Shown here in pieces: positions 9,202 to 11,948 of a stretch of 64,000 bases of DNA. Every line of letters starts with the position of its first letter. Positions within the stretch are counted from its first letter, which is position 1. Under the pieces are notes generated by a model. It was not told the DNA's origin. It worked only from the letters and a program-made list of their open reading frames with translations, and did no database searches. The translations under genes and the position numbers were made by a program. The stretch lies in the NCBI RefSeq assembly GCF_000026545.1, contig NC_011601.1; one strand, written 5' to 3'. Source of the DNA: Escherichia coli O127:H6 str. E2348/69 (GTDB lineage: Bacteria > Pseudomonadota > Gammaproteobacteria > Enterobacterales > Enterobacteriaceae).

Positions 9202-9789
9202 ATGAATACTTTACGTATTGGCTTAGTTTCCATCTCTGATCGCGCATCCAGCGGCGTTTATCAGGATAAAGGCATCCCTGCGTTGGAAGAATGGCTGACA
9301 TCGGCGCTAACCACGCCGTTTGAACTGGAAACCCGCTTAATCCCCGACGAGCAGGCGATCATCGAGCAAACGTTGTGTGAGCTGGTGGATGAAATGAGTT
9401 GCCATCTGGTGCTCACCACGGGCGGAACTGGCCCGGCGCGTCGTGACGTAACGCCCGATGCGACGCTGGCAGTAGCGGACCGCGAGATGCCTGGCTTTGG
9501 TGAACAGATGCGCCAGATCAGCCTGCATTTTGTACCAACTGCGATCCTTTCGCGTCAGGTGGGCGTGATTCGCAAACAGGCGCTGATCCTTAACTTACCC
9601 GGTCAGCCGAAGTCGATTAAAGAGACGCTGGAAGGCGTGAAGGACGCTGCGGGTAACGTTGTGGTGCATGGTATTTTTGCCAGCGTACCGTACTGCATTC
9701 AGTTGCTGGAAGGGCCATACATTGAAACGGCACCGGAAGTGGTTGCAGCATTCAGACCGAAGAGTGCAAGACGCGACGTTAGCGAATAA
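9202..9789 (+). CDS. mog: molybdopterin adenylyltransferase
   Basis: 195-aa ORF MNTLRIGLVSISDRASSGVY. Confidence 0.9.
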   Translation: MNTLRIGLVSISDRASSGVYQDKGIPALEEWLTSALTTPFELETRLIPDEQAIIEQTLCELVDEMSCHLVLTTGGTGPARRDVTPDATLAVADREMPGFGEQMRQISLHFVPTAILSRQVGVIRKQALILNLPGQPKSIKETLEGVKDAAGNVVVHGIFASVPYCIQLLEGPYIETAPEVVAAFRPKSARRDVSE

Positions 9790-9799
9790 AAAAATCCCC

Positions 9800-9807
9800 C
9801 CGAGCGG
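9800..9807. repeat. left copy of target-site duplication flanking IS50-like element
   Basis: ccgagcgg immediately before the element end; identical 8-mer immediately after the other end at 11358..11365. Confidence 0.6.
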
Positions 9808-11357
9808 CTGTCTCTTATACACAAATCCCCACCCGGGGATTTGTGATGTCTGTCAGTCTGCTTTAGGGGGACTCTTTCCATCCGGTAGTTTCCTTCCTCC
9901 CCGGCAGCGATTTTTTGAACTTTTTCCTCACCCGTTGATCTTCTCTTATATTTCATTTTCTTCGGGTCTGTTATGGTACTTTCTGATTGTTATTCATGGG
10001 CTAACGAGCAGTTTGGACATGCCCGTCTCGGTGATCCGCGTCGTACACGACGCCTTGTGTCACTGGCCTCTTCTCTCGCTCAGCATGCAGGTCTTTCTAT
10101 TGTGAAATCATCCCAGTCCACTGCTCAGGTTGAAGGTGCGTACCGCCTGATACGTAACCCGTCTGTGTCCCCGCAAGCCATTGCCGAAGCCGGATTTACC
10201 GCCACTGTAAGGGCATGTGAGGCTCATCCGCTGCTCCTCGCGCTGGAAGACACCACCACCATTAACTTCAGTCACAGTACGGCATCTGATGACCTGGGGA
10301 ATACCACCACTAACCCGAAGACGCGCGGGCTGCTGGCTCACTCTGTCCTGATGTACGCCCCCGACAGCGCCCTGCCAGTCGGTCTTATCGAACAGCAGCG
10401 CTGGAGTCGTGCCACGGACACCTACGGTGTTAAGCACCAGCGAAAAGAACGTCCCTATGAAGAAAAAGAAAGTTACCGCTGGCAGCAGGCTTCGGAGCGC
10501 ATGGCCGAATGGCTGGGGGAGATACAGAAACGGGTAATCACTGTCTGTGACCGGGAAGCGGATATCTGGCATTACCTGCATTATAAAGTCAGCCACGGGC
10601 AGCGCTTCGTGGTGCGTGCAGCACAGAATCGCCGGCTGGAAGAAGCACCCGGCAAGCTCTTCGAACTGCCGGAAGTCCTGGCAACCGCGGGAAGCCACAC
10701 GCTGAATGTGATGCAAAAAGGCGGGCGGGCAGCCCGCCAGGCCCGGATGTTCATCAGTTACAGCGAAGTCAGCATAAAAAATCCCGACAACAGCGGCCAG
10801 GCGCTCCCGCTCACGTATGTCTGTTGCCGGGAGCAGGCAGAGGACGGCGCCTGCTGGCATCTGCTGACGTCAGAAAAAGTGGCGAGTGCCGCCGATGCGC
10901 GACGTATCGTCAGCCATTACGAGCGACGCTGGCTGATAGAGGAATACCACAAGGCGTGGAAAAGTGGTGGTACATGTGTGGAATCGCTGCGAATGCAGAC
11001 CCGGGATAACCTCGAGCGCATGGTGGTTATCAAGGCGTTTATCGCGGTGCGGGTGCTGGGCCTGCGGCAGGGCGGTATCAGTGAAGAAACACAAAATGAC
11101 AGCTGTGAGAAAATACTGACGCCGACAGAGTGGAAACTGCTGTGGGTTAAGCTGGAAGGAAAACCGCTTCCGTCACAGATGCCGACACTGAAATGGGCCT
11201 GTCTGAAACTGGCGAAACTGGGGCGATGGCATGACAGCAAACGCACCGGTCGCCCCGGTTGGGTAGTCATGTGGGATGGCTGGTTCAGACTTCAGGATAT
11301 GGTTGAGGGTTACCTGGTGATGAAGTCTCTTGATCAGGAGATCTGATCAAGAGACAG
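9808..11357 (+). mobile_element. IS50/Tn5-like insertion sequence (IS4 family), apparently complete
   Basis: left terminus ctgtctcttatacacaaat (17/19 to Tn5 OE, 17/19 to ME); right terminus agatctgatcaagagacag is the exact reverse complement of the Tn5 inside end CTGTCTCTTGATCAGATCT; single transposase ORF reads from the OE-like end and stops inside the IE-like end as in IS50; flanked by direct repeat ccgagcgg. Confidence 0.85.
9973..11346 (+). CDS. IS4-family (IS50-group) DDE transposase
   Basis: 457-aa ORF with Tn5 Tnp hallmarks: LGDPRRT near N-terminus, ALEDTT and VCDREADI (catalytic Asp positions), RWLIEEYHKAWKSG (YREK motif with catalytic Glu); overall only moderately similar to canonical Tn5 Tnp as recalled. 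Confidence 0.85.
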   Translation: MVLSDCYSWANEQFGHARLGDPRRTRRLVSLASSLAQHAGLSIVKSSQSTAQVEGAYRLIRNPSVSPQAIAEAGFTATVRACEAHPLLLALEDTTTINFSHSTASDDLGNTTTNPKTRGLLAHSVLMYAPDSALPVGLIEQQRWSRATDTYGVKHQRKERPYEEKESYRWQQASERMAEWLGEIQKRVITVCDREADIWHYLHYKVSHGQRFVVRAAQNRRLEEAPGKLFELPEVLATAGSHTLNVMQKGGRAARQARMFISYSEVSIKNPDNSGQALPLTYVCCREQAEDGACWHLLTSEKVASAADARRIVSHYERRWLIEEYHKAWKSGGTCVESLRMQTRDNLERMVVIKAFIAVRVLGLRQGGISEETQNDSCEKILTPTEWKLLWVKLEGKPLPSQMPTLKWACLKLAKLGRWHDSKRTGRPGWVVMWDGWFRLQDMVEGYLVMKSLDQEI

Positions 11358-11365
11358 CCGAGCGG
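11358..11365. repeat. right copy of target-site duplication flanking IS50-like element
   Basis: ccgagcgg, identical to 9800..9807; the two flanks reconstitute the C6-GAGC-G6 hairpin expected at this site. Confidence 0.6.
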
Positions 11366-11381
11366 GGGGATCTCAAAACAA

Positions 11382-11948
11382 TTAGTGGGATTCACCAATC
11401 GGCAGAACGGTGCGACCAAACTGCTCGTTCAGTACTTCACCCATCGCCAGATAGATTGCGCTGGCACCGCAGATCAGACCAATCCAGCCGGCAAAGTGGA
11501 TGATTGCGGCGTTACCGGCAATGTTACCGATCGCCAGCAGGGCAAACAGCACGGTCAGGCTAAAGAAAACGAATTGCAGAACGCGTGCGCCTTTCAGCGT
11601 GCCGAAGAACATAAACAGCGTAAATACGCCCCACAGACCCAGGTAGGCACCAAGGAACTGTGCATTTGGCGCATCGGTCAGACCCAGTTTCGGCATCAGC
11701 AGAATCGCAACCAGCGTCAGCCAGAAAGAACCGTAAGAGGTGAATGCGGTTAAACCGAAAGTGTTGCCTTTTTTGTACTCCAGCAGACCGGCAAAAATTT
11801 GCGCGATGCCGCCGTAGAAAATGCCCATGGCAAGAATAATACCGTCCAGAGCAAAATAACCCACGTTGTGCAGGTTAAGCAGAATGGTGGTCATGCCGAA
11901 GCCCATCAGGCCCAGCGGTGCCGGATTAGCCAACTTAGTGTTGCCCAT
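11382..11948 (-). CDS. satP: succinate-acetate/proton symporter
   Basis: 188-aa membrane ORF MGNTKLANPAPLGLMGFGMTTILLNLHN (YaaH/GPR1 family). Confidence 0.9.
   Translation of the reverse strand: MGNTKLANPAPLGLMGFGMTTILLNLHNVGYFALDGIILAMGIFYGGIAQIFAGLLEYKKGNTFGLTAFTSYGSFWLTLVAILLMPKLGLTDAPNAQFLGAYLGLWGVFTLFMFFGTLKGARVLQFVFFSLTVLFALLAIGNIAGNAAIIHFAGWIGLICGASAIYLAMGEVLNEQFGRTVLPIGESH

Follow-up and report, generated by a model that had tools for sequence, protein, structure and literature searches.

Between the convergent genes mog and satP of Escherichia coli O127:H6 E2348/69 lies a 1550-bp segment resembling Tn5, and the question it raises is which element this is and how it came to occupy that particular site. 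The segment was analysed within a window comprising the first 64 kb of the E2348/69 chromosome, in which it is placed relative to its neighbors as follows.

9202-9789, + strand: mog (molybdopterin adenylyltransferase), the upstream flank, convergent with satP (from RefSeq NZ_LT827011.1 and the open reading frame)
9808-11357, 1550 bp: ISEc13 copy (from the sequence and RefSeq annotation)
11382-11948, - strand: satP (acetate uptake transporter; from annotation)

A megablast search of all complete E. coli genomes returned a 100% match to 9808-11357 at identical coordinates in NZ_LT827011.1 (E. coli O127:H6 EPEC E2348/69), where RefSeq names the coding sequence for WP_000244363.1 "IS4-like element ISEc13 family transposase". 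Many E. coli chromosomes, and plasmids such as pMAR2, contain copies named ISEc13, and these were 99.8-100% identical to the element at the nucleotide level; the name ISEc13 is that of the RefSeq/PGAP annotation. The IS50 subgroup has been characterized by a length of 1350-1550 bp, ends of the form CW------Y---CA-A--W-, a complete YREK motif, and direct repeats of 8-9 bp (PMC2266710). Every one of these hallmarks was found in the element, which is 1550 bp long and is accompanied here by a duplication of 8 bp. Judged by its sequence, the segment is therefore an intact copy of ISEc13, a catalogued member of the IS4 family, IS50 subgroup. A preliminary description had called it a complete, 1550-bp Tn5-like element, and all of the sequence-level statements made there were borne out, including the absence of the Tn5 resistance cargo; a single ISEc13 lies between mog and satP. 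Its presence at this locus is an ordinary, already annotated and already known feature of the reference genome. In mobile-element surveys, ISEc13 appears as a routine database entry named in passing (for example, PMC7729385), and none of the open-access papers naming ISEc13 was, by its title and abstract, about the element itself. A scan of GTDB species-representative genomes with the exact 31-nt left end yielded zero matches, and an Rfam scan of 9500-11700 at E <= 1 yielded no RNA family.

The coding region and the two ends of the element are located as follows.

9808-9826, + strand: left terminal inverted repeat, similar to the Tn5 outside end
9973-11346, + strand: ISEc13 transposase gene, a single uninterrupted open reading frame of 457 aa (WP_000244363.1)
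11339-11357, - strand: right terminal inverted repeat, overlapping the transposase stop codon

The one intact transposase gene that had been described was thus present. Residues 6-453 of its product matched Tn5 transposase structures (1MUH, 1MUS, 4DM0, and others) with E = 7e-83, and the protein scored 511.6 bits with NCBIfam NF033590, for which the cutoff is 160. The three-part architecture of the Tn5 type was present, with an N-terminal DNA-binding domain (PF14706 Tnp_DNA_bind, E = 2.8e-19), a DDE catalytic domain (PF01609 DDE_Tnp_1, E = 2.1e-07), and a C-terminal dimerization domain (PF02281 Dimer_Tnp_Tn5, E = 9.7e-05). In a global alignment with the IS50 protein, the DDE residues D93/D193/E323 aligned with Tn5 D97/D188/E326, and Y316/R319/E323/K330 aligned with Tn5 Y319/R322/E326/K333, giving a complete Y-(2)-R-(3)-E-(6)-K motif; W295 aligned with W298, the hairpin-stacking tryptophan of Tn5. 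The mog-satP copy encodes tryptophan at residue 180, as do at least two further copies of the strain lineage; most copies elsewhere encode arginine there. A sigma-70 consensus scan in and around the element found no promoter, including none upstream of the transposase gene. The fold of the 5' leader (9840-9985) did not exceed its shuffles in stability (z = +0.36), and nothing therefore pointed to occlusion of the start codon by a structure like that of Tn5.

The Tn5 outside end, CTGACTCTTATACACAAGT, and the mosaic end are given in PMC3347997, and a real IS50 copy of 1534 bp from a Salmonella plasmid (L124), which carries this outside end together with the inside end CTGTCTCTTGATCAGATCT, was used as the comparison reference. 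The left end of ISEc13, CTGTCTCTTATACACAAAT, agreed with the outside end at 17/19 positions and with the mosaic end also at 17/19, while the reverse complement of the right end, CTGTCTCTTGATCAGATCT, matched the inside end of IS50 at 19/19. Both ends, CTGTCTCTTATACACAAATC and CTGTCTCTTGATCAGATCTC, have 5'-CT termini and agree with CW------Y---CA-A--W- at all specified positions. The right end contains GATC at 11340 and 11345 and a BglII site (AGATCT) at 11339, so that the Tn5-type 19-bp termini were as first described. A third GATC is found at 11332, beyond the two in the right end. By analogy with the Tn5 inside end, the GATC sites suggest Dam-sensitive use of the right end. Within the left end, TTATACACA at 9815-9823 agrees with the DnaA-box consensus TTATNCACA, and from its likeness to the Tn5 outside end this motif would be a putative DnaA box.

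A strong hairpin is also found on the inner side of each end.

9820-9845, + strand: left-end hairpin, a perfect 11-bp stem (CACAAATCCCC-ACCC-GGGGATTTGTG) overlapping the inner part of the left end
11325-11355, no strand assigned: right-end palindrome, a 13-bp stem in which the right end pairs with a near copy of itself that faces inward (GTCTCTTGATCAG / CTGATCAAGAGAC)

The fold of 9785-9850 reached -20 kcal/mol (z = -3.8, with 0/200 shuffles as stable) and that of 11380-11310 on the minus strand reached -22.8 kcal/mol (z = -2.8). No U tract follows either end hairpin. As a matter of speculation, these structures might impede transcripts arriving from mog or satP.

The likeness to IS50/Tn5 therefore extends to the 19-bp design of the ends, the DnaA-box-like TTATACACA in the left end, the Dam sites in the right end, the transposase stop codon inside the right end, and a three-domain transposase with DDE, YREK, and the hairpin-stacking tryptophan. 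The two elements are, however, distinct. ISEc13 shares only 36% amino acid and 52% nucleotide identity with IS50 (copy from NZ_CP027411.1), it is 1550 bp in length compared with 1534 bp, and it is associated with a duplication of 8 bp rather than the 9 bp of IS50. The Tn5 inhibitor start, M56, aligns to Q52 of ISEc13, leaving no methionine at that position. Unlike IS50/Tn5, ISEc13 has the extra 11-bp hairpin in its left end and does not lie within a composite transposon here. None of the features that define IS50 proper or composite Tn5 (high identity, a 9-bp duplication, the Inh start, and kan-ble-str cargo) was found.

The immediate surroundings of the element record how it was inserted.

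9794-9807, no strand assigned: left half of the split hairpin (ATCCCCCC stem arm, GAGC loop, GG)
9800-9807, no strand assigned: left copy of the target-site duplication, CCGAGCGG
11358-11365, no strand assigned: right copy of the target-site duplication, CCGAGCGG
11358-11371, no strand assigned: right half of the split hairpin (CC, GAGC loop, GGGGGGAT stem arm)

The direct repeat noted in the preliminary description was exact and lay just outside both ends; it comprises 8 bp and cannot be extended to 9. A 9-bp duplication was considered for this copy and rejected, as neither of the possible 9-mers occurs twice and reconstruction with 8 bp reproduces an existing empty site without a mismatch. 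Removal of the element and one repeat gave ATCCCCCCGAGCGGGGGGAT (with wider flanks, ...AAAAAAATCCCCCCGAGCGGGGGGATCTC...), which folds as an 8-bp stem with a GAGC loop. The 400-nt reconstructed empty site was identical at 400/400 positions to strain 104 (NZ_CP029164.1), confirming that the joined flanks restore an uninterrupted C6-GAGC-G6 hairpin. Comparison with other E. coli genomes found an uninterrupted site between mog and satP in 5410/5426 complete genomes, and the insertion is hence not universal. A query spanning the left junction was covered to at least 80% in only 3 records among the 5426 genomes, all of them E2348/69 or a construct derived from it. Because the filled junction was specific to this strain, the view that a simple, recent insertion had entered a conserved site was upheld. 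Agreement of this kind at the sequence level, including the empty site in 5410/5426 genomes, is far beyond chance.

The mog-satP copy was identical at 1550/1550 positions to another copy of the same lineage (L004), which disrupts an allG-family gene, and it was separated by 1-3 nt from copies inserted in dgoD and carried by plasmid pMAR2, as well as from copies of unrelated strains. Read from sequence, the near-identical copies, the perfect duplication, and the empty site are together the apparent trace of recent transposition during an expansion of the element in this lineage. The mog-satP copy is probably still mobile, given the identical copies at different sites within the strain, the perfect duplications, and the intact open reading frame and ends. 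Matches to the element were found at 29 places in the chromosome NZ_LT827011.1. Copies covering at least 80% of its length were present in 873/5426 complete genomes (about 16%), and some match to it was present in 2991/5426 (55%). The complete-genome search also returned 1176 places on plasmids, and 1138 PLSDB plasmids from Escherichia, Shigella, Salmonella, and Klebsiella matched. The genomes with full ISEc13 came from human, animal, and water sources. One statement of the preliminary description, that Tn5-family elements stand outside the usual E. coli IS repertoire, therefore proved wrong, as the element is the catalogued ISEc13, near-full in 873 of the 5426 genomes and matched at 29 places in this one. 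The abundance of ISEc13 corrects the idea of Tn5 relatives as foreign to E. coli.

Two other accounts of the insertion were weighed against these data. It might be IS50 itself, or the remnant of laboratory Tn5 mutagenesis or of Tn5-derived sequencing adapters, an idea consistent with the 19/19 match of the right end to the inside end and the 17/19 matches of the left end to the outside and mosaic ends. However, identity to real IS50 was 52% (nucleotide) and 36% (amino acid), the duplication was of 8 bp and not 9, there were 29 chromosomal places and full copies in 873 genomes, and the junction was common to three independent E2348/69 assemblies. The two identity values by themselves ruled out a laboratory Tn5 artefact, and the account as a whole was judged to have next to no probability. 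It is also very improbable that the insertion is an old, fixed feature of the wider E. coli lineage. Its presence in all three E2348/69-derived assemblies does place it before the divergence of the laboratory stocks, but the junction occurred in only 3/5426 genomes, the copy was 100% identical to another in the strain, its duplication was perfect, and its flanks matched the empty site of another strain at 400/400 positions. The insertion is accordingly treated as a recent one by ISEc13.

A second ISEc13 copy, located between agp and yccJ in strain FDAARGOS_144, was also found in a C-run/G-run hairpin (ctccccc-GCGTGAAG-IS-GCGTGAAG-cgggggag), and insertion sites were therefore collected. The sources were E. 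coli genome hits, metagenome contigs with the exact 23-nt left end (82 loci), and IMG/VR, where scans with the exact 23-nt left end and the 21-nt right end gave 17 and 20 loci, respectively. Flanks were kept only beside sequence at least 98% identical to ISEc13, and after duplicates were collapsed there remained 27 left and 20 right independent flanks. At positions -13 to -10, C was present in 20-24 of the 27 left flanks and a pyrimidine in 26-27; position -9 was C or T in 24/27. On the right, G was present in 14-19 of the 20 flanks at +10 to +13, and +9 was A or G in 19/20. The trinucleotide CCC occupied -12 to -10 in 15/27 left flanks, against a background of 0.0106 (binomial P ~4e-23), and GGG occupied +10 to +12 in 11/20 right flanks (P ~3e-17). 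The duplication was 8 bp long in 10 of 11 intact copies flanked by direct repeats, and 9 bp in the remaining one. The target of ISEc13 is thus a two-fold symmetric YCCCY-N8-RGGGR, whose specificity resides in the two arms that border the staggered cuts on the outside.

A position weight matrix was built from 41 half-sites, with the site in the window itself left out, and was used to score the window after removal of the IS. The mog-satP site scored 12.7 (mean -14.2, sd 6.9) and ranked 1 of 62,418 positions; its location was therefore predicted by the preference of ISEc13 itself. The C6-GAGC-G6 stem is a nearly perfect fit to the consensus, and the midpoint of the duplication falls on the hairpin dyad. 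The flanks were taken from sequenced genomes, where the removal of harmful insertions by selection could make the preference look stronger. Such selection cannot explain a position-specific motif of 5 nt, which also holds within the disrupted dgoD and allG-family genes.

At many of the sites, among them mog-satP, agp-yccJ, and the ibs toxin loci, the centre of the duplication coincides with the dyad of a genuine hairpin. It was therefore also considered that ISEc13 reads a DNA structure, such as an extruded cruciform or a single-strand hairpin at terminators, with the tip of any GC-rich stem-loop as its insertion point. Relatives with the same 23-nt left end are likewise found at the apex of terminator-like hairpins, for example aaaaaacccc-GGTAAATACC-ggggtttt (L012). 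Among 10 independent complete sites, however, high complementarity was confined to the five positions of the arms (6-10 of 10 pairs); inside the duplication, complementarity was near chance (3-5/10), and beyond the arms it was 0-7/10. The 5' arm was consistently composed of pyrimidines and the 3' arm of purines, never the other way round, a polarity that a purely structural reader would not impose. Furthermore, the copies in dgoD and the allG-family gene have the arm motif without a longer hairpin. Recognition of structure is therefore less likely than recognition of sequence and was considered unlikely in its own right. Symmetric reading of sequence by two transposase subunits is favoured, with terminator stems as frequent natural matches.

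Set beside other elements, this preference is much stronger than that of Tn5 and is sited in arms outside the duplication. The Tn5 target consensus, A-GNTYWRANC-T, is weak. Two other IS4-family elements, IS231A and IS186, resemble ISEc13 in having symmetric targets of short G and C runs with a fixed spacer; that of IS231A is reportedly GGG(N)5CCC, and that of IS186 is said to be GGGG(N6-7)CCCC. They belong to other subgroups, however, and the polarity of ISEc13 is opposite, with the C run 5' and the G run 3'. Unlike in IS231A and IS186, the spacer of 8 in ISEc13 equals the duplication length, and the specificity lies just outside the staggered cuts. Conserved target arms have been described for elements of subgroup IS4 and for ISRm22 (PMC2266710). 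Insertion in extragenic palindromes between convergent genes is shared with IS1397 and ISKpn1 (IS3 family) and with REP/BIME targeters of the IS110 family. The transposases and chemistry of these elements are nevertheless unrelated, and they recognize REP sequences rather than C-run/G-run stems. In strain CU42ET-1, an IS1397 adjoins satP on its mog-proximal side, and the mog half of the spacer query had no match there; strain MS21199 has a BIME in the mog-satP spacer.

By extension from Tn5 biochemistry, a dimer of the 457-aa DDE transposase would bind the two 19-bp ends and release the element in a cut-and-paste reaction that passes through hairpin intermediates. Both 3'-OH ends would next be joined to target strands with an 8-bp stagger, and gap repair would leave the CCGAGCGG duplication. 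The preferred target has a 5-nt pyrimidine run, mostly C, directly 5' of the eight duplicated bases and a G-rich purine run directly 3' of them. The insertion arose in the E2348/69 lineage, during the expansion of ISEc13 to about 29 chromosomal places. Taken as a whole, the explanation that an ISEc13 copy with a symmetric target preference was inserted during expansion of the element in this lineage is one in which we have high confidence.

For the host, the consequences would depend on the function of the split hairpin. A T run, TTTTTTTATTCGC, comes after the intact hairpin on the strand of satP, and the hairpin therefore reads as the putative intrinsic terminator of satP. With the hairpin split, transcription of satP may continue into the IS in antisense orientation, and that of mog may proceed in sense towards the transposase gene. 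This disruption of the satP/mog terminator, specific to strain E2348/69, could accordingly affect read-through between the convergent genes and into the transposase gene.

The preference for target arms is the one point that may be under-described. No description of an ISEc13 target preference was found in the searchable open-access texts. It is a tentative proposal, held at somewhat less than even confidence, that ISEc13 and relatives having its 23-nt left end are a natural lineage of the Tn5 type, whose strict two-fold symmetric YCCCY-N8-RGGGR specificity leads them to the apex of intrinsic-terminator stems built of C and G runs. The preference predicts further landing sites of ISEc13. If it is indeed undescribed, its natural contrast with Tn5, whose target selectivity is weak, would help to map the points at which target DNA is read by IS50-type transpososomes, and the preference may be of use for engineering site-biased Tn5 derivatives.

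The transposase encoded by the ISEc13 copy in the window carries tryptophan at codon 180 (window position 10510; IS position 703), and most copies of the element elsewhere encode arginine at this position (WP_000244358.1). The W180 variant was found at at least three different sites in the E2348/69 lineage, namely the mog-satP hairpin, an allG-family gene (L004) and a further locus (L097). This spread implies that the W180 variant either transposes by itself or relies on R180 copies to move it in trans.

Two full-length copies lacked the direct repeat:

plasmid pMAR2, NZ_CP059841.1 14877-16726 (L007)
a second locus, L098

In both, the arm motif was present in each flank separately (cctctc-TGCAAGGA ... 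GTCATACA-gagggc), which, together with the missing repeat, suggests that, after insertion, two copies recombined or adjacent DNA was deleted. A left-end remnant of the element (about 96.9% identity), consisting of a truncated transposase pseudogene beside IS66 fragments, was also identified:

NZ_CP008697.1, strain ST648 (L003), ISEc13 left-end remnant

This remnant is conserved there and in many other genomes, at gcgccccc-CTATCAGG, and explains some of the 2991 genomes that have partial matches. The same site in L020 holds a 1500-bp element with an 8-bp duplication.

An exact 23-nt ISEc13 left end was shared by further elements (L012, L014, L025, L040, L042 and L083), which, like ISEc13, occupy the apex of C-run/G-run hairpins that resemble terminators. 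Beyond these 23 nt, ungapped identity of these elements to ISEc13 was 32-62% over the next 165 nt, and their right end (...CTGACTTGTGATCAAGAGACAG) was unlike that of ISEc13. The insertion site of L012 reads aaaaaacccc-GGTAAATACC-ggggtttt:

metagenome contig LULW01002776.1, minus strand, 1430-bp element with a 10-bp duplication (L012)

Its duplication is longer than the 8-9 bp listed for the IS50 subgroup (PMC2266710).

On the strand antisense to the transposase gene, a terminator scan returned five hairpins that resemble terminators and carry T tails; GGCGGGCTGCCCGCCCGCC followed by TTTTTGCATC is the strongest of these. Among them were:

window 10720-10738, minus strand, terminator-like hairpin
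window 10783-10801, minus strand, terminator-like hairpin

In total, the 2-kb region held 6 terminator-like sites versus 2.0 ± 1.4 in shuffles. The antisense hairpins could serve to stop transcripts arriving from satP, or could be due to chance.

Observations on the mog-satP spacer in other strains come from two loci:

NZ_CP082047.1 9472-10141 (L125)
NZ_CP082773.1 834330-837541 (L126)

Some strains have a spacer lengthened by about 170 bp, in which REP/BIME-type palindromes lie between two C-run/G-run hairpins. REP sequences are a known target of IS1397, and in strain CU42ET-1 IS1397 adjoins satP. Different mobile elements have thus landed repeatedly in the mog-satP spacer.
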